From Callorhinchus milii (taxonomy: Eukaryota), in contig NW_024704742.1 in the NCBI RefSeq assembly GCF_018977255.1, positions 65,226,001 through 65,286,000 of the forward strand: a stretch of 60,000 nt of DNA. The letters are read 5' to 3'. A program made the position numbers and the translations under genes. Under the pieces are notes generated by a model. It was not told the origin of the DNA and searched no databases. It worked only from the letters and a program-made list of their open reading frames with translations. Below, in pieces: positions 1 to 55,059 of the stretch; position 1 is the stretch's first letter, and every line of letters begins with the position of its first letter.

Positions 1-339
1 TGTGGACAGGGGAGATTGACAGCCTTTTCCAGGCTTACAGTTTTGTAACTGTAGGTAAAGTGAATTGTGAATTACTAACAGATGATTCTAATTGCTCTTA
101 ACTAATACACTCCATCTGACGGAGTTTAACAGATATTCTCGTTATATTAATAAAGTGATAATTTGTATACTTGATATGCACTTCTATTCGTGATTGTATA
201 TAATTTTCTTATCTCATTTCTGGGAATCTCAATGAGTATGGACATTGATCACTTTGCACTGATCTTTTGAATTGTAAATATTTCTGCTCAGGGTGTCAGA
301 TATTACTCTAAAACCAAATGGTGACTTTAGTCCTTCCAC

Positions 340-43984: not shown

Positions 43985-45449
43985 ATCAGGAGTTCACTGT
44001 AATTCATATTGTAAATACCAAAACTTTTTTGCATTTATACAATTGGTGGAAGCCGCTGCATTTCTTGTTGTCTTTGAGTGGTCCTGAAAGCTGTGAGGAT
44101 CAAATCTGTGTTTTTTTTAACCTTAAACCTGATTTAAAGTGCAGCCAAGGTTATTTCTGAAGTTGGTGATTTTTCTTATGCAGTTTAGTCACACACATGC
44201 CAGCAATGTATAAAAATTTGCAGTGTCAGCCAGACTGTGATTTGCCTTCTTAACACCGTTTTATGCAGCTGCTAATTGATAGTCATACATTGAGAGCCTG
44301 ATCAAAGAAAGCTGCATAATCACTGCGCCTGACTGTAACACGGGCTGAGTTAATCTCAAGATTTTCTAATTTCAGAAGTTTCGATTGTAATGGGTTTGAA
44401 GTGCTTCATTTGACGACTTGATGCATTTTGTTGGTCTGGCTATGAAATAAGAATGGGTGAACAGGCAGTAAAATCTTAATCAGTGAGTAAATGGGCGATT
44501 TTTCAGACCATGTGTTAGTTTTTTTTTTGAACAATTAAATTACTTTGTTCAGAAAGTAGAGCCAGTGTATTCTGTGTATGGCCAGTGGAACCAAGCAAAG
44601 CTGGGGATGACCGCGGAGTCTGATACGGGAAAGGACATGGGCTGCAGAATTCTGGATAGTTACATGAGAAATTAAAGCATTTGGGGATGTTTTGTTTGAT
44701 TGCTGTGTGTTTTTAACCTTCAGCTTTCTTAATTTGCGAATGCAGTATGTTAACACCTAGAGTTCAACAAGATCTGACGTTTTTTAAATTGCCTAAAGGT
44801 AGATCCTGCTGGGTTAACTAATTGCCAAAAAAGTCATACAGAAGTTGTGAATCAAAACTTGAGTTGCATTTCAAGGATATTAGACAATAGTTCAATTCCA
44901 GATTTATGTAATGAACCATCAGAAACATGTAATGTTCACCATTTTTAAATCTGAAAGTGTAATAGTGCATTGAAGTAGGAGGTGAACCTCTTGAGCAGAT
45001 ACAACTGTGCTGTTTATTCCTAATCTCCAAAAGGTGTGCTTAGAATGATGTACTAAAAGTCCTAAAATACCCTAACGATCATTGAAATATTTCATTTTGT
45101 GGATAAGCCTTTGGGTTTATTCTGCATTTTTATATCCCAAAATTGGAGCAAATCAATGGTAATATCTTTTTGGCAAACATTACACTTTACAGTAATTCCT
45201 GTGAAGCGCCTTAGATGTACTTTCACCATGAAAGATATCATATCAAATAGAGTGCGTCTCTCTAAAACAAAGATTTTCACTGATGTTGTAAATATATAAC
45301 TACTTTTTTCTTCTCTTGAGTCCATAAAATAAATGATAAAATCACGTATTGTATTTTTGTAATCAAGCTGAGTACTGCACTAAATGATCTAATCACCAGA
45401 TTGTTTAGCACCTGGGAGAACCTATTACGACTTTCCTGCGGTGTAACTT

Positions 45450-46230
45450 TGTTGAGTTGTAACTCTTTCGTTCGTCCCAACCGTCGTCTTACAACCAGAC
45501 CATACTCCGTGGAAATATCCAAAGTAAGATTTATTGCAATTGCAAGAGCTGATTCAAGAGCAGTCAACAGTCTCTAAGAAGAGCACCGGACAGTCAAAAG
45601 AATGAGCTGCTTTTGGTCAGTTAAAGCAGCCTTTTTATCCCCAAAAGTGCTCAAGGTCGTAAAGCATACAAAGGCAATTAAAAAAACTTTATCAATCATG
45701 TAGTTCCAACGACTATTCGAATGGTGACGTCAATCGATCTATATCTGTAGACAAGGTTAAATGTCATCTACTTAATTAGTATCCATTCATGTTGATTATT
45801 ATTCTTTAAAATATCAATCAAATATAATTGGCATAGAATATGTACCTGATTAATACCGTTGTCTAAAGTATACAAGATCCAATCTAAAGCTATCTAACAA
45901 GAATACAACCTTTAAAATTTATAATACAGAGTAAGAAATAACGAGGGAAGGGATCTCAGGTTAGGGGAGGATTCAGGGACGTTAGAGGCATAAGTTTATC
46001 TCCCGATGGTGTTTGTGTCAGACAATGACCTATTCATTTCAAAGTTGCAGAAGTTACTGCTTCTCTGCTTCCATGGAATGTCCACCCAGATAAGGATGCA
46101 GTTGGCATTGCCAAGTCTGAGTTTTCCCAGGACTTGTTTTTTTAATGTTTCAGCTAATGTTTGACTTAAAAAGGCATAACATTATTTCTAGGTATAAAAG
46201 ATTTTTCTACAATTTCACTACAATTTCACA
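45450..46230 (-). repeat. ERV 3' LTR (781 bp)
   Basis: Preceded by PPT; differs from the 5' LTR by 4 substitutions and 3 indels (1, 5 and 22 bp) on manual comparison; CRE at 45725-45732; AATAAA (minus) at 45529-45534. Confidence 0.97.
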
Positions 46231-46242
46231 TTCCCTCCTTTT
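46231..46242 (-). other. Polypurine tract AAAAGGAGGGAA
   Basis: Immediately 5' of the TG of the 3' LTR. Confidence 0.92.
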
Positions 46243-46275: not shown

Positions 46276-48075
46276 TTATACCTCCTGCGTACCATTTTCA
46301 TCCTTCCAATATTTCCTGTCCCTGTTTACTTGTCGTTCCACTAACTCTCTATTTATTTCCTCCTTAGTACAAGTCGTTGCACAACCATATACTAATTTAA
46401 CTACTAATAGCAATGCCAAAATCCAAAATATCCACTCTAGTATTGCAGTTCCCCATCCATTCCGTATAGTGCCAATCCAACAGAATGGTGACCAGCCGCA
46501 ACTACCCTTATGTTTATCAATGTCCCCTGCCTCATCACCTGCTTCCTTGACTTTTTCACTTTCTTCAGTTATATTTGATGAATAATCATTTATCCAGGAG
46601 CAACATTCTGGACCAATTATAGCGCATGCTCCTCCTTGAGTGGCCAAAGTCATGTCTAACGCCATCCTGTTCTGCATTGTCATTTTTCTGATGGCTTGTT
46701 GTTCTTTATTTAAACGATCAATACTCAATGATGTAGCTCTTGACATTTCTTGAAGGTTGCCTGCAAGGGCTCTTATTTCTGCTAGTGACACCTCTGTTCC
46801 ATATAGTGGAACGAAGGTGGATAACAGTTCTGTATACCATTGGTTGTCGTACCATCGCATACTCCTCTTATGCCGATGTAGTCCTTTTTGTTTTAACCTT
46901 TTCATCTGTGTTACTCGAGCATCCTCTTCTGGGGTATCGCTGGTGTACCTGAAAGAAGGCACTACATAAGCTAGACCACATCTTCCGAGCCACCCATTAG
47001 GCAACCATTTGTAGGCTGTATCTCCACATATCCAATGAAGTTCATCTGGAGTTTGAATAGAACAGGAATGTGACATTAATATCACCTTGGCCAGTGCTGG
47101 TGTAATACTCTGAAGGCACTGTGATACTGGTTTAACTATTCCCTTGGCATTAGACACTAAAGGGTTCGCATCAGGGATTATTGAGTCCCCCTGGACTATC
47201 ACGCTACATTTAGAGGAAGGCAGTTGTCCTAATTCCTTTCCAGTCATTAGCATATAATTGTTGTTATTGGGAGCAAAACCCTTTCTGTCCCAGTTTTCCA
47301 GACACCATTCAAAAACTGGTACTATCTTAACCTCCATGCTTGGTGGCATATCATCACATCTAATGCAGTCTTCGGAGGGGTTTGTTTTATCTTCTTCCCC
47401 TTGAAAACAGGTGATGGGTGTATAACGACTAGCTTTCATATTAATACTACAATTATTTCTTTCGTTGGCTGTCAGGTAACATAAATCACAGTCAGTAGAG
47501 GCAATAGCCATCATTGTTATACCGGAACCTACAGAGCGAGGCTGTGGCATGCATATCACCCTTCTCGTACTGTTGTTGGCATATTGCCTTACTAAGCCCA
47601 AATACTGAAGGAACAAATTCTCCTTCTCTGAGTGTTTTTGATAATTAACCCTTAAGTGTTTAGTCATGACCAGGTTATTATTAGTTTTGGCATTCCCATC
47701 TAAAAGGTCCATTTTAGCTCTAATTCCTGTATCCTTTTTGCATGTCAAGTCTCCCAATCTGGTATATTGCATGTTACAGCATCCCGTTTGTAATGTAATA
47801 CCAGTTCCTGTAGTAAACCTGCAGGAAGTTTCATTTCTGCGGCTACAGTTAGTGTTACCATTCTGACTTTCCAAATAAACCAATTCTTCTTCATTTCCCT
47901 TACGTATCGACACTATCGCTAACAGTTGTTGGAAAGCGTCCCCTGGTTCTAATGCTAAAGTTTGGTTAGTCAGGTTAGTAAACGTCATGTACACGTCCTT
48001 TCCATGTGTTATGTTTACACAACATAATATCATTATGTATACGTAAGTCTTTTGCAGTGGTTCAATTGAACCCAT
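46276..48075 (-). CDS. env: ERV env, intact 599 aa, gamma-type TM
   Basis: First ATG at 48075 (the track start is GTG); hydrophobic signal segment, furin site RHKR 46875-46864, fusion peptide, ISD MQNRMALDMTLATQGG, CX6CC CAIIGPECC 46626-46600, TM helix, stop 33 nt before PPT. Confidence 0.92.
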   Translation of the reverse strand: MGSIEPLQKTYVYIMILCCVNITHGKDVYMTFTNLTNQTLALEPGDAFQQLLAIVSIRKGNEEELVYLESQNGNTNCSRRNETSCRFTTGTGITLQTGCCNMQYTRLGDLTCKKDTGIRAKMDLLDGNAKTNNNLVMTKHLRVNYQKHSEKENLFLQYLGLVRQYANNSTRRVICMPQPRSVGSGITMMAIASTDCDLCYLTANERNNCSINMKASRYTPITCFQGEEDKTNPSEDCIRCDDMPPSMEVKIVPVFEWCLENWDRKGFAPNNNNYMLMTGKELGQLPSSKCSVIVQGDSIIPDANPLVSNAKGIVKPVSQCLQSITPALAKVILMSHSCSIQTPDELHWICGDTAYKWLPNGWLGRCGLAYVVPSFRYTSDTPEEDARVTQMKRLKQKGLHRHKRSMRWYDNQWYTELLSTFVPLYGTEVSLAEIRALAGNLQEMSRATSLSIDRLNKEQQAIRKMTMQNRMALDMTLATQGGACAIIGPECCSWINDYSSNITEESEKVKEAGDEAGDIDKHKGSCGWSPFCWIGTIRNGWGTAILEWIFWILALLLVVKLVYGCATTCTKEEINRELVERQVNRDRKYWKDENGTQEV

Positions 48076-51000
48076 TTCTCTCGTCCTTGTAGCTTGGCAG
48101 CAGTCGGTGTTGTTAGCAGCACTTGAAATGGCCCATTCCACCGGGGTTCCAATTTTTTGTGGGTCCAGTTGCGAATCAAGACGTAGTCTCCCGCTTGTAT
48201 CCGAGGACCAACGTCCTTCGAATCTTCCGTCTGTCCGCCTCCCTCCTTGTGTAGGTTCTGGACCTGTGAATGATACTGCTGCAAGCTTTTTGTTAGAGCA
48301 ATCACATAATCATGTACTTCGCTTGTCATCTCATAAATGTTAGAAGGATTATGTTTCTGGGAAAAAGCCCAGGGAGTTTGCAATGTTTTTCCGTATAATA
48401 TTTCAGCCGGAGACAGCTTGGTTTGCCGTTGTGGTGTGACTCTCATTTGGAATAAGAGCCATAGGTAGAATTTTAAACCAGCTCAGTCCCGTTTCTTCAG
48501 ACAATTTTGAAAGTTTGAGTTTCAATGTTTGATTAGCCCTCTCCACCAATCCTGCAGATTGAGGATGGTATGGACAGTGAAACTGCTGTTTGATGTTTAA
48601 TTGGTCACAAAGTTCTTTGTTTATCCGGGCTGTGAAGTGTGGTCCGTTGTCTGAACTTATACAACTGGGAATTCCAAATCGTGGTATTATTTCTCTTAAT
48701 AAAATTTTTACAACTGTTTCTGCAGTGTTGCAGGTAGTTGGATAAGCTTCTATCCACTTACTGAATACATCTACAATTACTAGACAATATTTGTAACACT
48801 GAGTTTTTGGCAATTCAATGAAATCTAGTTGAATTGTATCAAATGGCCCTGCTGGAAGAGGAGTACGGCCTAGGGGGCATGGTGTTCCTTTTCCAATGTT
48901 AAATTTTTGGCAAATTAAACATCTTTGTATTACCTTTTGGGCGCTTTGGTCAAATAAAGGGCTCCACCATGATTGCAGTAATAACCCCACCATTCCCTCC
49001 TTGCCAGCATGCATTTGTTGATGAACAACATCAACTAACCATGGTAGTAAGCTAAGTGGAACACAACACTGTCCGGCCGGAGTTAACCATACTTTTAAAT
49101 TGTCATCATATGTACATCCATTGTTTTCCCATTCTGTTATTTCATCTGTAGAGGCCTCTTTTTGTAATGAGATAACGTCATCTAAAGTTGGCATCTTTTT
49201 TACTTCAGAATCTGACTTTATCCCTGCGGATCTTTGAGCCATATTCGTCAATTTAGGAACAATTAATTTTTGCTCTCGAGATGCCAATTTAGCTGCTGCA
49301 TCAGCTCGTCTATTCCCATTGTCAACTGCTGAAGTCCTGGTTGTATGTGCTGCGCATTTAATGATAGCTAGCCTATTAGGTAGAAGTATGGCTTTCAGTA
49401 AATTAACTATTAAAGTCTTATTCTGTATGTCTTGGCCTGAACTGGTTAGGAAACCTCACTGTTTCCATATGTTCCGAAATCATGGGCTACCCCAAAAGCA
49501 TATCGGGAATCTGTATACATGTTAACGTCTTTTCCCTCTGCCAGTATGCTTGCTCTGGTAAGAGCAAACACCTCTGCTTGTTGTGCAGATGTTGGCTCTT
49601 CAAATGCTGCTGCTTCTATCTCCATTTCCCCTGTCACAATAGCATAGCCAGATTTTCGTTTCCCAAACTCATCAATAGAGGAACTCCCATCAACATATAA
49701 TGTTAAATCGACTTTGTCCAGGGGTATATCTGTTAAATCATCCCGTGGAGACGTAGTGTGCTGTATCACTTGAATGCAATCGTGATTTGCGTCATCTAAA
49801 TCAGCTGGCCGATGAGAGAGGAACGTTGCGGGGTTAATGTTTGTGCAGCAAACAAAGGATAGCTGAGGATTGCTGAGTAGGGCTGCCTCATATCTACTCT
49901 GTCGTGCCATAGTTAAATATTGTGTCTGCATTTGGCATAGTAATGCTGAAACAGAATGTGTCGTATGTACCACTGTGCTTGAGTTTAGTGTAATGTTCGA
50001 TGCAGCCTGTAAGCAAGTGTATATAGCTGCCAATATCTGAGTGCAGTGTGGCAGTCCTTTAGCAACAGCATCCAGTTGCGTGCTATAGTAGGCTACTGGT
50101 CGCTGTCGATCACCATGTAGTTGTGTCAATACCGCAGTAGCGCAAACCTCCAATACTGTCACATAAATGTGAAAAGGTTGATCGTATAATGGTCTCCCGA
50201 GTGCTGGTGCTGTTGCCAATACCGCTTTTAATGTGTTAAATGCCTCTAATTCTTTCTCAGGTAATTTGTATTGACTGTCTGTCAGAGTTGTAGAATAGGG
50301 TGTTAATAATTTAGTGTACAGTGTAACATTAGGTATCCATTGACGGCAATAATTGAGCAACCCCAAAAACTGTCGCATTTTAGTGGGTGTATTAGGAGGT
50401 GGCAAAGCTAATATTGGCGCTATTCTTCCTTGTTCTAATTGCCTGGTATGTGCCGATATTATTACTCCCAAAAATTTTACCGATGTTTGTCCTATCAATA
50501 TTTTCTGAGGTGGGACAACGTACCTGAGATTCTTTAACTCGTTAAGCAATTGAACGCTGCCTTTCTCGTTTGCATCCCTGCTGGAACTAGCCAACAACAA
50601 ATCGTCAATGTACTGTATTACCGTAGATCCCTCTTTTAACTTAATTTTTCGTAACTGTGATTGTAGTGTTGTGGAGAATATGGTAGGGGAATTCACGAAT
50701 CCTTGCAGGAGTCGTGTCCAAGTATATTGTCTTCCCTGGAAAGTAAATGCGAACAAATACTGACTAGATTTATCCAACGGTATAGAAAAAAATGCATTCT
50801 GTAAGTCTATCAGTGTAAAAACTTCAGTTTCTGCTGGTATCAGCGAACAAATAGTGGCGGGATTTGGTACTAGGGCATACGCTTCTTTAACAATTTTGTT
50901 AATAGCCCGTAAATCTTGCACCAGTCTATAATCCTCATTCTTTTTGAGTACTCGCAGTATTGGCGTATTGCATGGTGATGAACAAGCGACAAGTACGCCT

Positions 51001-52007
51001 TGCTCAAGAAATGAAGTAATTAAAGGCTTAATGCCTTCTTCAACTTCCCGTTTTAAAGGATACTGCCTTATTGATGGAAGTCTTTCTCCGTCTTTTATCG
51101 GTATTTTAATAGGCAGAACATTAGTATACCCTAACTGCATTTTGTCCACTGCCCATACTCTACTGTCTATCCCCTGGGGAGATGACCGTGTATGTGAAGC
51201 ATGTTTGTTTAAAATACCAACAACTGGTATTGGTGACCAAAATTCTACTGAGACTGTGTTTTTAACTTGTATTCCACTATTGCATGTGTCTGCCCATAAC
51301 AGAGCATCATGGACCATTATCCCCAAATCTTTAGCGTGGTAACCATCTGCCACAGATAATGTTATGTGTGGTGCAGTTTCATCATCCTGTTTCCATACAT
51401 AATGAGGCACCGTAACTATCAATGCTGATCCTTGACTACCAGTCACTACCCCGTTAATTTCTACCGTCTGTGGAGTCCCTAACATTTGTGAAAAGTACCT
51501 ATCCAACTCTGTATCTGTACCCGATGCATCATAAGCGAGGGTAATGTGTGGTGTGGGCGGCATATTCTGCAACAGAATGTCATGCTCTGTGAAATCTATC
51601 GCCCACCATGAAGCGTGTATGAACTGTGAATACACTGTTGCCGTGTTATTTGCATTAATGCTAATCCTTTCATGATTGCATTCAATACTTAAGTTCAGAC
51701 CGCATAGTAAATCTCTGGCCAAAATGTTTACATCCAAATTAGTGGTGACCACAAAGCAGTGTTCAACAGTAACGTCTCCGTACGTGGTTACCAACGGTAT
51801 TGTGTTAGCATAATTTTGTAGTATTCCAGCAAAACCTGAAAGATTGGTGGTTTTGCCGTTTGTTTTAAAACCGAGTTGTGATTGAATTGACGAACATGTT
51901 GCTCCGGAGTCCACTAAAAATGGAACTTCCCGCCCTTCTACTATGACTGTTAGAATGGGTTCTTTCACAGCAGCATTTGTTAGTAGCAACATGTTTCTAT
52001 CCGCCCG
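48033..52007 (-). pseudogene. pol: ERV pro-pol: protease (DSG at 51911), 2H-like insert, RT (YIDD 50612-50601), RNase H, integrase (HHCC, DDE, GPF); disrupted
   Basis: Motifs FLVDSGA, ILARDLL, YRLVQDLRAIN, LYVDGSS, YTDSRYAFG, SDNGPHF, GLVERAN, WNGPFQV; 1-bp frameshift near 49469, TGA at 49458-49456, second frameshift near 48445, LPQG->LLQG. Confidence 0.95.
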
Positions 52008-52948
52008 TCAATCCTCATGTGGAAAAGGATTGCCGGTGGTGAACTGAGGTCTCTCTCTATTTTGCGGTGGCTGGGGCATTTGCGGCTGTCCGCCGTGGTA
52101 CCAATTATCTTGTCCCCTTTGTCTTTGTGGAAAAGAATTTACTTCGCCAAATGTATACGGCATGGGGGGTCCTCTAGGTTCGTAATTTAGTTGAGGTGGT
52201 TTCGGTACGTATGGTATTTGCCCACGGGGGAAAGGACAATTTTTTTTTAGGTGGCCTGGGTACCCACAATTATAGCAAACATATCCCAGGGGTATTGTAT
52301 ACTCCGTTCCTGCGTTATACCTTTCATAATCTTGTCTATTTTCTGACTCAAACCCACCATTCCCTGATGATGTTTTTTAGCATGGTGCCTGTGTCTGTAG
52401 TGGTGTTGTTTTTCCTCCCTGTTTGTGTATTCCGCCTTTACTTTAATTTCTTTATTTTCTTTTAATTTTTGTTCTAAATTATCTGAAGCTGTCTGATCCC
52501 AATAGTACCGAATTGACCTACCCATTTGAGCCTGCGGGTTTTCCTGCCAATTCATGTTGTTGGTTTTAACCATTTCAGCTACTTTTGCTGGAACTGATTG
52601 TAAAACCAAAGCATTATATTGTGGCGATGGTTGCCCTGCCAAATAAGTTATGTCGTCGGAGAAACTGGCTACCACTGAATTGTTCTTTCTTTTTTCACCT
52701 TCTTCTATCCATTTTTTAATGGCTAACTTAGTTTTTAACCCTTTTCCGCAGCCTCGTTTTTTCCATATTGCATTTTGTATTTTTATTAGTTTTTCCAAAT
52801 CCCAAGTACCTCCTTGAGGCCAACCTTCCAATTGCTTGCTAGCCTGCCCAGACAGTAGTCTGAATTTAGTCTCGTATTCAGGATATAATGTACACATAAT
52901 TTGGACCGGATCCTTTGGGCTATTTGCTTTGTCAAGTACGGTACCCAT
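52008..52948 (-). pseudogene. gag: ERV gag, short (~313 codons) and frameshifted; MA N-terminus (MG..., WPQGGTWD) and CCHC knuckle CYNCGYPGHLKKNC at 52277-52236
   Basis: The knuckle is in a different frame from the ATG ORF; that frame ends at TGA 52010-52008, in frame with pol. Confidence 0.88.
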
Positions 52949-53019
52949 TTTTTAAAAAAGATTTTTACACACCGGTGTATTCCTGTAATTTTGGCTCAAT
53001 AGTTGTCAAAATTGTCTTT

Positions 53020-53525
53020 CTTCATGAATTTCACTAAAACACAACTTATAACACACGATACAACAAATAACAAAACACAAATGAATTACACTAAAACACA
53101 ACTTATAACACTCGATACCACAAGTAACAAAACACAAAATCAATACTATAAAACGTCACTCATTACCCAATCAAATTTTTGAATCGTTCAAAACTACAAA
53201 TACGAATGCGTAATGGATTAGTTTGTCTAGCGATTATCAAATTCTCCCCGGTTTTCGAGCTACAAGTCGTTCAATACTACCATACCATCACGAACACGTA
53301 ATGGATTAGTTTGTCTACGACGAACTCGTATTCTCCCCGTGTTTTCGAGCTACAAATCGTTCAAAACTACCATAACGCTACAACTGTGTAACGGATTAGT
53401 TTGTCTACCGTTGAACTCGTATTACACGTCGTGTGCTTCAAGCTACAAATCGTTCAAAACTACCATACCGCTACAAATGTGTAACGGATTAGTTTGTCTA
53501 CCGATGAACTTGTATTGCACGTCGG
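53020..53525 (-). repeat. Tandem repeats in the ERV leader: 2 x ~58 bp (53024-53140) and ~4 x ~90 bp (53176-53523)
   Basis: Recurrent CACTAAAACACAACTTATAACAC and TCGTTCAAAACTAC...GGATTAGTTTGTCTA blocks (plus strand). Confidence 0.9.
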
Positions 53526-53873: not shown

Positions 53874-53891
53874 ACCCTGCTCGCAGCGCCA
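53874..53891 (-). other. Primer binding site TGGCGCTGCGAGCAGGGT, tRNA-Ser (UGA/CGA type)
   Basis: 18 nt starting TGG, 2 nt after the LTR; nearly complementary to the recalled 3' end of vertebrate tRNA-Ser(UGA) ...ACCCTGCTCGCTGCGCCA. Confidence 0.8.
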
Positions 53892-53893
53892 AA

Positions 53894-54692
53894 TGTTGAG
53901 TTGTAACTCTTTCGTTCGTCCCAACCGTCGTCTTACAACCAGACCATACTTCGTGGAAATATCCAAAGTAAGATTTATTGCAATTGCAAGAGCTGATTCA
54001 AGAGCAGTCAACAGTCTCTAAGAAGAGCACCGGACAGTCAAAAGAATGAGCTGCTTTTGGTCAGTTAAAGCAGCCTTTTTATCCCCAAAAGTGCTCAAGG
54101 TCGTAAAGCATACAAAGGCAATTAAAAAAACTTTTATCAATCATGTAGTTCCAACGACTATTCGAATGGTGACGTCAATCAATCTATATCTGTAGACAAG
54201 GTTAAATGTCATCTACTTAATTAGTATCCATTCATGTTGATTATTATTCTTTAAAATATCAATATAATTGGCATAGAATATGTACCTGATTAATACCGTT
54301 GTCTAAAGTATACAAGATACAATCTAAAGCTATCTAACAAGAATACAACCTTTAAAATTTATAACACAGAGTAAGAAATAACGAGGGAAGGGATCTCAGG
54401 TTAGGGGAGGATTCAGGGACGTTAGAGGCATAAGTTTATCTCCCGATGGTGTTTGTGTCAGACAATGACCTATTCATTTCAAAGTTGCAGAAGTTACTGC
54501 TTCTCTGCTTCCATGGAATGTCCACCCAGATAAGGATGCAGTTGGCATTGCCAAGTCTGAGTTTTCCCAGGACTTGTTTTTTTAATGTTTCAGCTAATGT
54601 TTGACTTAAAAAGGCATAACATTATTTCTAGGTATAAAAGATTTTTCTACAATTTCACTACAATTTCATTACAATTTCACTACAATTTCACA
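53894..54692 (-). repeat. ERV 5' LTR (799 bp)
   Basis: Direct repeat of 45450-46230; followed (minus sense) by PBS; CRE TGACGTCA at 54170-54177; GATAAAAAG TATA-like element and AATAAA on minus strand. Confidence 0.97.
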
Positions 54693-55059
54693 ACTTGATG
54701 GCACATATTGTAGGCACAAATTCACTGCTGTGTTGTCAGGAAAAGACATCTTTATTTTTGACTGGTGAGATAGTGCTGTGGAAAATTTCTGTTGATTGCT
54801 AAAATGTTCTTGTATTCAGTATGATGGATCAACACCATATAGTTCAAACATAAAATAAACTATTTTGTTGTGTTATCATCCCCACAAAAGTATCTGCTGT
54901 CTAGCTTTTCTCAAACTTGTGTAATGACCTTAACTGTGTGCGTCTTCATGGATCACATTTACTGTAATTTTCTTGATCTAATGAAGTATGATGGTACAAA
55001 AAAGAACCTAAAATATTGCCAATTGTTTTTTTTCCCCTAGAAAGTAGTCTGATTATCCG

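Follow-up and report, generated by a model that had tools for sequence, protein, structure and literature searches.

The pro-pol frame of an endogenous retrovirus (ERV) of Callorhinchus milii was found to encode a domain of approximately 146 residues between its protease (PR) and reverse transcriptase (RT) which, with a probability of roughly three in four, is a true 2H phosphoesterase domain belonging to the CNPase/CPDase type, an integral and inherited part of Pol (in the order PR-2H-RT) shared by a clade of class I (gamma/epsilon-like) fish retroviruses and, as we infer, an active phosphodiesterase (PDE). A 2H domain at this place in Pol had been proposed in the initial annotation of the sequence and was supported here by the predicted fold, by the conservation of the motifs and by the purifying selection seen in a sister family of ERVs; the attribution to a cartilaginous-fish host was also right. 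Coordinates refer to the window, the whole stretch of 60,000 nucleotides that was analysed, and all proviral features lie on its minus strand.

Motifs and predicted fold of the domain

The residues separating the protease from RT (51632..51195) lie in an open minus-strand frame, and the CNPase-like 2H phosphoesterase domain was placed at 51195..51632 (ORF residues 126-271, P0001 residues 23-168) using AF2, VIA and Foldseek. The two H-x-T/S-x motifs of the 2H superfamily, each with small or hydrophobic residues ahead of it, are present, with PHITL occurring twice. The first, His154-Ile-Thr156 (51540..51548), lies in TPHITLAYD with a Tyr at +5 and has its His codon, CAC, at 51548-51546; the second, His214-Ile-Thr216 (51360..51368), lies within APHITLSVADGYHAKDLG, where Pro precedes the His, and its His codon, again CAC, is at 51368-51366. 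The motif pair, the His codons and the distance of 60 residues from His154 to His214 were verified in the ORF as they had been annotated, and the spacing, which had been described as shorter than in most 2H proteins, is 60 residues compared with 79 in mouse CNPase (H230/H309, from PDB titles). The two PHITL stretches differ in synonymous codons, so a recent duplication at the DNA level does not account for them. A pair of Hx(T/S) motifs by itself is weak evidence, and the 2H assignment is raised above chance by the conservation of the motif pair in relatives together with the fold match.

An AF2 model of the domain, calculated with a 25-row alignment as input (pLDDT 87.3, pTM 0.79), was compared with 48,161 chains using VIA-align. 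The best match was mouse CNPase (2xmi_A), with a Z score of 14.1 and an rmsd of 3.3 Å over 146 residues (model range 23..168) at a sequence identity of 14%; it was the sole chain at Z>=8, the next best reaching Z 7.7, and in terms of the predicted model CNPase is thus the closest fold among the 2H branches. Fifteen of the 16 chains at ranks 2-17 are 2H members, among them CPDases, LigT, Acb1, VP3, ns2, Usb1, AKAP18, ASCC1 and the cGAMP PDE of a poxvirus. A Foldseek search against the PDB returned 49 matches at E<=0.001 (best E 3.6e-5, TM 0.53), and among the matches listed every row from rank 1 to rank 48 was the CNPase catalytic domain, with a fungal tRNA-ligase kinase/CPD entry at rank 49. 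The nearest Atlas clusters by language-model features bear tRNA_lig_CPD (score 0.96). The model, as a prediction, fits the two-lobed alpha+beta 2H fold, which AlphaFold and Foldseek had been expected to return if the initial annotation was right. Judged from this model, the resemblance is to CNPase/CPDase in particular and not to ns2/VP3.

No other structure matches nearly as well as the catalytic domain of vertebrate CNPase (2xmi; PF05881): both HxT motifs align, and the aromatic residue at His1+5 (F235) and a hairpin between the motifs are shared. The ERV domain differs from it in being only 10-15% identical (Foldseek rows), in not reaching PF05881 and in its shorter motif spacing. In addition, R307 of CNPase (His2-2; SRSH in the host exon) is replaced by Ala, Val or Ser-Pro in the viral family, so substrate handling may differ; F235 and R307, with residue numbers taken from PDB titles, are active-site neighbours in CNPase. 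CNPase carries an N-terminal kinase-like domain and a membrane anchor, whereas the ERV domain has neither and forms part of a viral polyprotein. The CPD of fungal and plant tRNA ligases (PF08302; 6u05) and the plant and bacterial CPDases (1fsi, 5h7f) belong to the same 2H branch, whose members open 2',3'-cyclic phosphate to 2'-phosphate, but their VIA scores (Z 7.7 and 7.0) are far under that of CNPase and a sequence-level match is absent.

Weak Pfam matches were all to 2H families, namely LigT_PEase (E 0.0021), 2_5_RNA_ligase2 (E 0.0085) and Acb1 (E 0.066), and no curated 2H profile passed its threshold (18.6 bits with a cut-off of 23.3, 16.6 with 27 and 13.4 with 27, respectively). The initial annotation had held that a 2H domain should find a profile or structure match; the predicted structure found a match, whereas the curated profiles stayed below threshold. 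The Pfam CNPase profile (PF05881) gave no match to P0001 and matched one of 25 relatives (E 0.011). When a profile of the domain was compared with the exon of the host CNP gene, which is located elsewhere (C23) and scores 140 bits to PF05881, the first motif aligned to LHCTT (E 0.021) and the second to SHITL (E 2.1e-4), the host CNPase having a 13-residue insertion ahead of the second motif. Against PDB sequences, a profile built from the untrimmed alignment (A1) gave 0 matches; with the trimmed alignment (A2), 16 of the 17 matches at E<=10 were CNPase with both His residues aligned, the best having a sub-significant E of 0.14.

Relatives, conservation and selection

A HMMER scan of 1.84 billion representatives identified 26 relatives of the domain at E<=0.001. 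A word-index homologue search with region 120-275 of the Pol ORF, restricted to near lengths, had given 287 candidates and none at E<=0.001, the index being too coarse for this family. The first HxT motif was present in all 25 aligned relatives, as was Tyr or Phe at first-His+5, the position of CNPase F235. The second motif, Hx[TS], was present in 20 of the 25; of the other five, two are truncated at this point and one is degenerate, and in the last two His is replaced by Gln and Thr by Ile, respectively. Conservation of the HxT motifs, on which the initial annotation had made its proposal depend, was found in these relatives. In the 17-row alignment A2, H51, T53, G90, A92, P110, H111 and G126 are invariant, which includes the Pro-His of the second motif.

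The position between PR and RT is the same in the ERV Pol of chimaera, sharks, skates, rays and teleosts; a skate protein (P0007, 1225 aa), for example, has the order PR-domain-RT-RNaseH-IN. Six teleost Gag-Pol proteins, from Oreochromis, Epinephelus, Sparus, Myripristis, Hemibagrus and Paramormyrops, carry the domain (E 1e-38 to 1e-47), and no 2H family appears in the precomputed Pfam lists of the teleost Gag-Pol relatives. In another ERV family of C. milii (L002-L007) the domain has a dN/dS of 0.11-0.20 at a dS of 0.5-1.9, and the flanks have values of 0.04-0.11 on the PR side (leaving out the pair L003 and L004, in which synonymous sites are saturated) and 0.10-0.12 on the RT side. In this sister family the domain is under purifying selection comparable to that on PR and RT.

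These data bear on two alternatives. One might suspect that the two motifs occur together by chance in a linker that does not fold into a domain, since two Hx(T/S) triplets in 140 residues are not rare and the curated profiles are all under threshold, but this is contradicted by the confident model, the specific fold match, the 26 relatives and the low dN/dS, and it can be set aside with near certainty. It is also quite improbable, if less so, that the domain is a catalytically dead 2H-fold module which serves Pol as a structural spacer or for protein binding, possibly as a mimic of host CNPase, which reportedly binds HIV-1 Gag. 2H pseudo-enzymes exist, and the Arg matching CNPase R307 is missing here; against this, both His and both Thr/Ser residues have been kept across long-diverged hosts in a domain of which the remainder is only 21-37% identical, and retention of the exact catalytic tetrad would be surprising in a mere spacer.

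Structure and integrity of the provirus

The provirus is bounded by a 5' LTR (53894..54692, with TG...CA ends) and a 3' LTR (45450..46230), which were located by blastn of both provirus ends and had their edges read from the sequence. The LTRs are 98.7% identical over 780 blastn columns, with 4 mismatches and 2 gaps, and the upstream edge of the 5' LTR, which holds an 11-bp repeat array (54647-54691), extends for two 11-bp units more than that of the 3' LTR. The flanking sequence contains an AAGT target-site duplication (54693..54696 and 45446-45449). A primer-binding-site-like stretch beginning TGG (53875..53891) lies 2 nt past the 5' LTR and a polypurine tract, AAAAGGAGGGAA (46231..46242), adjoins the 3' LTR. 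The first part of gag (52250..52948) starts with Met-Gly and gave no Pfam capsid match; the second part, in another frame (52011..52376), encodes a nucleocapsid zf-CCHC (Pfam E 1.3e-5) and is closed by an in-frame TGA (52010-52008) immediately ahead of pro-pol. The pro-pol frame is open and uninterrupted for 853 codons (52007..49449) and encodes, on either side of the 2H domain, a retroviral aspartyl protease (51684..51965, ORF residues 15-108; Pfam RVP E 5.9e-8, above cut-off) and the RT core (50457..50948, ORF residues 354-517; Pfam RVT_1 E 7.5e-30). It continues into RNase H (49479..49709), where Pfam aligns profile positions 3-77 of 141, the match breaking off at the end of the frame (49446-49448). 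The zinc-binding and core domains of integrase (48406..49455; rve E 7.8e-20, Integrase_H2C2 E 1.3e-6) are off-frame relative to RT-RNase H, and the C-terminal domain (48036..48482; Pfam MLVIN_C E 6.3e-16) is in yet another frame. The env gene (46279..48075) is of gamma type, open for 599 codons from its ATG (TLV_coat E 2.2e-9), with C-x6-CC in TM.

LTRs with a target-site duplication, the primer-binding site and polypurine tract, the gag-pro-pol-env order, the in-frame stop between gag and pro-pol, the MLV-type integrase C terminus and the gamma-type Env identify a class I (gamma/epsilon-like) ERV. The provirus is young, as judged by the identity of its LTRs, yet defective, with gag and pol frames broken. 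The suggestion in the initial annotation that the domain could be expressed directly therefore applies to no more than the open frame of the domain itself, and at this locus the 2H domain is a fossil in this particular provirus. There are three copies of this ERV family in C. milii, of which only the present one has kept the 2H region, and the public gene model of the locus removes the domain by splicing.

Possible substrates, host pathways and significance

CNPase and tRNA-ligase CPD domains open 2',3'-cyclic phosphates to 2'-phosphate and 3'-OH. By analogy with these enzymes, the ERV domain is most likely a 2',3'-cyclic phosphodiesterase, which would carry out the same metal-independent reaction. 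It would be made within Gag-Pro-Pol and so would be carried into particles beside RT, where its likeliest substrates may be 2',3'-cyclic-phosphate RNA ends, or 2',3'-cyclic nucleotides, such as would be left by host metal-independent RNases.

The initial annotation had also raised cleavage of 2-5A, by which a 2',5'-phosphodiesterase like ns2, VP3 or AKAP7 would block a pathway of the OAS-RNase L type. These proteins, viral enzymes included, have the 2H fold in common with the ERV domain and are among the VIA matches (VP3 Z 6.7 and 6.4, ns2 Z 6.2, AKAP18 Z 5.3), and OAS genes exist in the host genome, with 14 exon matches to OAS1_C above cut-off in a four-gene cluster on C8 and a locus on C1. 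However, they represent a different 2H branch, the score of CNPase is twice that of any 2',5'-PDE, and the same domain is widespread in ERVs of teleosts, which are not known to have OAS. The KEN domain (Pfam Ribonuc_2-5A) was detected at two host loci only, both with IRE1-type luminal and kinase exons upstream, and RNase L, the target pathway of these enzymes, was accordingly not found in the host genome by an exon-by-exon search, which a divergent gene could escape. Of the two host genes that were to be looked for, OAS was thus found and RNase L was not, and the 2-5A reading, weakened on both counts, is improbable.

Degradation of cyclic di- or oligonucleotide messengers such as 2'3'-cGAMP, in the manner of Acb1 or the poxvirus 2H cGAMP PDE, is a similarly unlikely function, if marginally less so. 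cGAS senses retroviral DNA and makes 2'3'-cGAMP on reverse-transcribed DNA, and a place beside RT would suit such an activity. The host genome encodes STING (3 exon matches above cut-off) and contains at least 11 Mab-21_C loci. The fold is shared by Acb1 (Z 7.0) and by the cGAMP PDE of penguinpox (Z 5.1), and the weak Pfam match to Acb1 has been given above; yet the likeness to them is no better than to other 2H branches and far below that to CNPase, and a cyclic-dinucleotide pocket is not indicated by the sequence. The predicted fold, close to CNPase/CPDase and not to ns2/VP3, steers experiments to 2',3'-cyclic-phosphate chemistry and not to 2-5A.

Accessory enzymes inside retroviral Pol are rare. 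The textbook case is dUTPase, a domain in the Pro/Pol of betaretroviruses and non-primate lentiviruses and the one accessory enzyme of nucleotide metabolism in retroviral Pro/Pol, the 2H domain aside, that is widely known; the likeness is an analogy of architecture and not homology, fold and chemistry being unrelated to those of the 2H domain. Mazumder et al. are said to have noted, in 2002, a 2H module in the walleye epsilonretroviruses WDSV and WEHV-1. Proteins of these two viruses are the best viral structural matches to the ERV domain in BFVD (WEHV-1 Q9WHI8, E 2e-8, TMq 0.60; WDSV A4GTG3, E 4.7e-6), which names both of them 'Envelope polyprotein'; going by these labels, the module of the walleye viruses appears to be situated in Env instead of between PR and RT as here. 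A 2H domain is ascribed to WDSV (PMC9503650), and a review (PMC4977317) credits Basta et al. (2009) with finding a CNPase gene in teleost epsilon-like ERVs. The latter share with the C. milii domain an overlapping group of hosts and the same enzyme family, but the review speaks of 'additional open reading frames' (PMC4977317), whereas the C. milii domain is in frame within Pol and its host is a chimaera. The statement in the initial annotation that 2H modules had been noted in fish retroviruses was correct (PMC9503650, PMC4977317), and the novelty is lower than it had assumed. These two sources were the only relevant ones retrieved by a literature search for 2H/CNPase in retroviruses; no mention of a phosphodiesterase was found for shark ERVs in the text searched of Han 2015 (PMC4422223), PMC6001957 and PMC10699275, and a function, structure or selective test of the 2H/CNPase module of fish retroviruses was not found in the literature searched.

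The C. milii domain joins a known kind, that of the walleye retroviruses and teleost ERVs, and is no new class; its locus extends the 2H/CNPase module to cartilaginous fishes, and the present analysis adds the fixed PR-2H-RT position, a constraint on par with that on PR and RT, and a predicted fold that points to CNPase/CPDase. It also reveals an annotation gap, the 2H family being missing from the teleost Gag-Pol Pfam lists and the domain being spliced away in the gene model of the locus. More speculatively, a whole clade of ancient fish retroviruses may have placed a CNPase-type enzyme ahead of RT as a virion-delivered counter-defence, a proposal that we regard as tentative and rather doubtful. 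Such an enzyme would repair or neutralise the 2',3'-cyclic-phosphate products of host RNases that work without metal, as might arise on the tRNA primer or the genomic RNA, with 3'-OH restored for reverse transcription, or might alternatively break down cyclic-nucleotide immune signals to which reverse transcription gives rise; the walleye viruses would have put the same module in Env. Since members of the clade occur in chimaeras, sharks and rays as well as in teleosts, a role in counter-defence or RNA repair, if true, would predate tetrapod OAS-RNase L.

The pro-pol frame and its provirus

An ORF search of the window delineated a pro-pol frame on the minus strand running from 52007 to 49449 (853 codons, stop to stop), in which a retroviral protease (PR, ORF residues 15-108), a reverse transcriptase (RT, residues 354-517) and an RNase H (residues 767-843) were assigned using Pfam. 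The PR-RT interval contains TPHITLAYD and, 60 residues downstream, APHITLSVADGYHAKDLG; the His codons of both motifs are CAC (51548-51546 for the first, 51368-51366 for the second), in exact agreement with the spacing and positions in the initial annotation. The two motifs are not a recent duplication, as their synonymous codons differ.

The LTRs, priming sites and gag, integrase and env features identify the surrounding provirus as a class I, gamma/epsilon-like ERV, young judging by its LTRs and defective in gag and pol. Aligned with each other, the minus-strand LTRs (53894-54692, 5'; 45450-46230, 3') show 4 mismatches and 2 gaps in 780 columns (98.7% identity); they have TG..CA ends and are accompanied by a 4 bp target duplication (AAGT). 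Using the neutral rate of 2.2e-10 per site per year assumed for C. milii in PMC4422223, the 4 mismatches in 780 columns would give a rough insertion age of about 12 million years. A TGG-type primer-binding stretch starts 2 nt past the 5' LTR and a polypurine tract precedes the 3' LTR. The short gag region (52008-52951, minus strand) encompasses about 310 codons from Met-Gly to TGA over two frames, with a zinc knuckle in the second part and no Pfam match to a capsid domain; the in-frame TGA divides it from pro-pol, the arrangement of readthrough-type retroviruses. The integrase is spread over two additional frames (Pfam rve, Integrase_H2C2 and MLVIN_C), and env, with a C-x6-CC motif and a match to TLV_coat, has 599 open codons. 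The leader that separates gag from the 5' LTR has tandem repeats (53024-53154, 53210-53524; 57 bp x2, 93 bp x3.5), and an 11-bp array at the upstream edge of the LTR (54647-54691) is unequal in copy number in the two LTRs.

In the public gene model for the locus (P0002, 385 aa, 'ribonuclease H', Callorhinchus milii), the protease end is joined straight to residues past the second HxT motif, so that most of the 2H domain is spliced out (window 51330-51710, minus strand). This joint was not seen in the contigs of four public runs, which show presence, not absence. One contig of run X1 (2632 letters) spans 49919-52550 with 0 differences from the window, and contigs over PR-2H-RT with few differences were found in three other runs of the same organism label, the kind of run being guessed in each case. 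An X1 contig also carries a joint from 53789 to 48278 that skips 5510 bases, bounded by GT..AG in the proviral orientation, and connects a point just past the primer-binding region with one some 200 nt upstream of the env ATG; a spliced env mRNA would show this pattern. The shorter side of the joint is just 29 letters long, and the RNA kind of the run is guessed.

Profile and fold evidence for a 2H domain

Searching the insert against Pfam returned three matches, all to 2H families and each under its own cut-off: LigT_PEase (E 0.0021), 2_5_RNA_ligase2 (E 0.0085) and Acb1 (E 0.066). The translated stretch carrying the domain (P0001, 183 residues, window 51698..51150) was compared by HMMER with all 1.84 billion representatives, yielding 26 proteins at E<=0.001, including 7 at E<=1e-10. 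An alignment (A1) was built from P0001 and 24 of these 26 relatives, leaving out P0002, which misses most of the domain, and P0010, a copy that is cut at its N-terminus and joined to zinc fingers. A trimmed alignment (A2) of 17 rows comprised P0001, 13 short matches and three locus translations. Compared with PDB sequences, the A2 profile gave 17 matches at E<=10, 16 of them to CNPase with both His aligned, at a best E of just 0.14. By themselves, the sequence profiles are suggestive, a weak pointer to 2H identity.

An AlphaFold2 model was calculated from A1 with a mean pLDDT of 87.3 and a pTM of 0.79. Foldseek comparison with the PDB yielded 49 matches at E<=0.001 (best match CNPase, E 3.6e-5, TM 0.53); every listed row of ranks 1-48 was the CNPase catalytic domain, and rank 49 was a fungal tRNA-ligase kinase/CPD entry. 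When the model was compared with 48,161 representative chains using VIA-align, the sole chain with Z>=8 was mouse CNPase (2xmi_A), which aligned over 146 residues (model 23..168) with a Z of 14.1 and an rmsd of 3.3 Å. All but one of the chains at ranks 2-17 (Z 7.7-5.1) we take to be 2H members, namely bacterial and plant CPDases, LigT, YjcG, Acb1, rotavirus VP3, MHV ns2, Usb1, AKAP18, ASCC1 and poxvirus cGAMP phosphodiesterase. An independent ESM Atlas feature search pointed to tRNA-ligase CPD clusters (score 0.96). The candidate domain of the initial annotation is thus borne out at the level of the predicted model, which has a 2H fold of the CNPase/CPDase branch.

The host CNP gene lies on a separate contig, C23 (PF05881, 140 bits). 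Aligned to the host CNP exon, the viral-domain profile placed its first motif on LHCTT (E 0.021) and its second on SHITL (E 2.1e-4), and the shorter viral motif spacing is accounted for by a 13-residue insertion ahead of the second motif in the host exon. The position of CNPase F235 (first His +5) is aromatic in 25/25 relatives, whereas that of R307 (second His -2), an Arg in the host exon, is taken in the viral family by a small residue with an invariant Pro.

Conservation, position and selection

All 25 rows of A1 have HxT motif 1, and 20/25 have Hx[TS] motif 2; at the latter, P0015 and P0020 are truncated, P0009 is degenerate, P0014 has His->Gln and P0017 has Thr->Ile. Residues H51, T53, G90, A92, P110, H111 and G126 are invariant in the 17 rows of A2. 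By their source names, the relatives nearest to P0001 (34-44% identity in the matched part) come from Scyliorhinus torazame, Leucoraja erinacea, Amblyraja radiata and Mobula hypostoma, with remoter ones from the teleosts Hemibagrus and Paramormyrops. The A2 profile, run against 6969 candidates, recovered six long Gag-Pol proteins (Oreochromis, Epinephelus, Sparus, Myripristis; E 1e-38 to 1e-47), and a skate Pol of 1225 aa (P0007) has the order PR, 2H domain, RT, RNase H, IN, as in the window.

The 2H DNA of the window occurs once in the C. milii assembly (G000), and the env of its family three times (100%, 95% and 91% identity). The copy with 95% env identity (G000:C3:88851500-88861499) is without the block corresponding to window 50035-52543 and the 91% copy (G000:C3:18133500-18143499) without 49686-52662, blocks that each include PR, the 2H domain and a portion of RT. 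A joint from 50026 to 52544 in an X1 contig fits the former deletion. Because both copies lack the block, the conservation of the HxT motifs in related ERVs, on which the initial annotation had made its reading depend, could be assessed only across families and hosts, where it was found.

Searching the genome with the domain protein recovered the domain itself and, at 30-35% identity, six loci (L002-L007; G000 C1, C2, C4, C5) that belong to a second, multi-copy ERV family and fall into three sublineages with the PR-2H-RT order. Both HxT motifs are present in 6/6 loci and the domain is open over 163-167 codons. Between the three sublineages, dN/dS of the domain is 0.11-0.20 at dS 0.48-1.9, and the flanking stretches give 0.04-0.11 (PR side) and 0.10-0.12 (RT side); selection therefore preserved the 2H domain during the divergence of these viruses.

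Proposed activity and precedents

CNPase and tRNA-ligase CPD domains convert 2',3'-cyclic phosphates to a 2'-phosphate and a free 3'-OH. Given that its frame is open, its catalytic tetrad intact, its predicted fold CNPase-like and its sequence conserved by purifying selection, the 2H domain would be an active 2',3'-cyclic phosphodiesterase. Made within Gag-Pro-Pol, it would be present beside RT in particles, and its most economical role would be to process the cyclic-phosphate RNA ends or nucleotides that host metal-independent RNases leave behind. A 2-5A target in an OAS-RNase L type pathway, as raised by the initial annotation, is the weaker reading: the host has four OAS-like genes in tandem (G000:C8:9857539-9882207) and a further locus (C1:108396392-108398357), but an exon-by-exon search found only two KEN-domain (Ribonuc_2-5A) loci there (C20:2382059-2382698, C16:6961439-6962380), both of which have luminal and kinase exons of IRE1 type and look like IRE1 paralogues, and the ns2/VP3/AKAP7 branch reached half the Z of CNPase in VIA-align. 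A cGAMP-type role has a low probability: the host has STING (C13:5534491-5536754) and many Mab-21 loci, but nothing specific supports such a role.

The 2002 abstract of Mazumder reportedly describes 2H modules in polyproteins of certain retroviruses, possibly for capping or processing of viral RNA. The best viral matches of a BFVD fold search were WEHV-1 Q9WHI8 (E 2e-8, TMq 0.60) and WDSV A4GTG3 (E 4.7e-6), with the unnamed entry Q2VF30_1 also among the top matches; as the first two are labelled Envelope polyprotein, the walleye retroviruses may carry their 2H module in Env instead of Pol, if these labels are right. A 2H domain is noted for WDSV in PMC9503650. Epsilon-like ERVs of ray-finned fish occasionally have extra ORFs for a CNPase or macro domain, according to a passage of PMC4977317 (citing Basta et al., 2009). 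The searched parts of PMC4422223, PMC6001957 and PMC10699275 hold no mention of a phosphodiesterase in shark ERVs, and literature searches for 2H/CNPase in retroviruses gave nothing beyond passages on walleye retroviruses and teleost ERVs. The 2H domain in fish retroviruses is of an already known, though unstudied, kind. A CNPase-type 2H domain in retroviral Pol is well supported as real, and the present analysis adds its occurrence in chondrichthyan ERVs, its fixed PR-2H-RT position and the evidence for selection.
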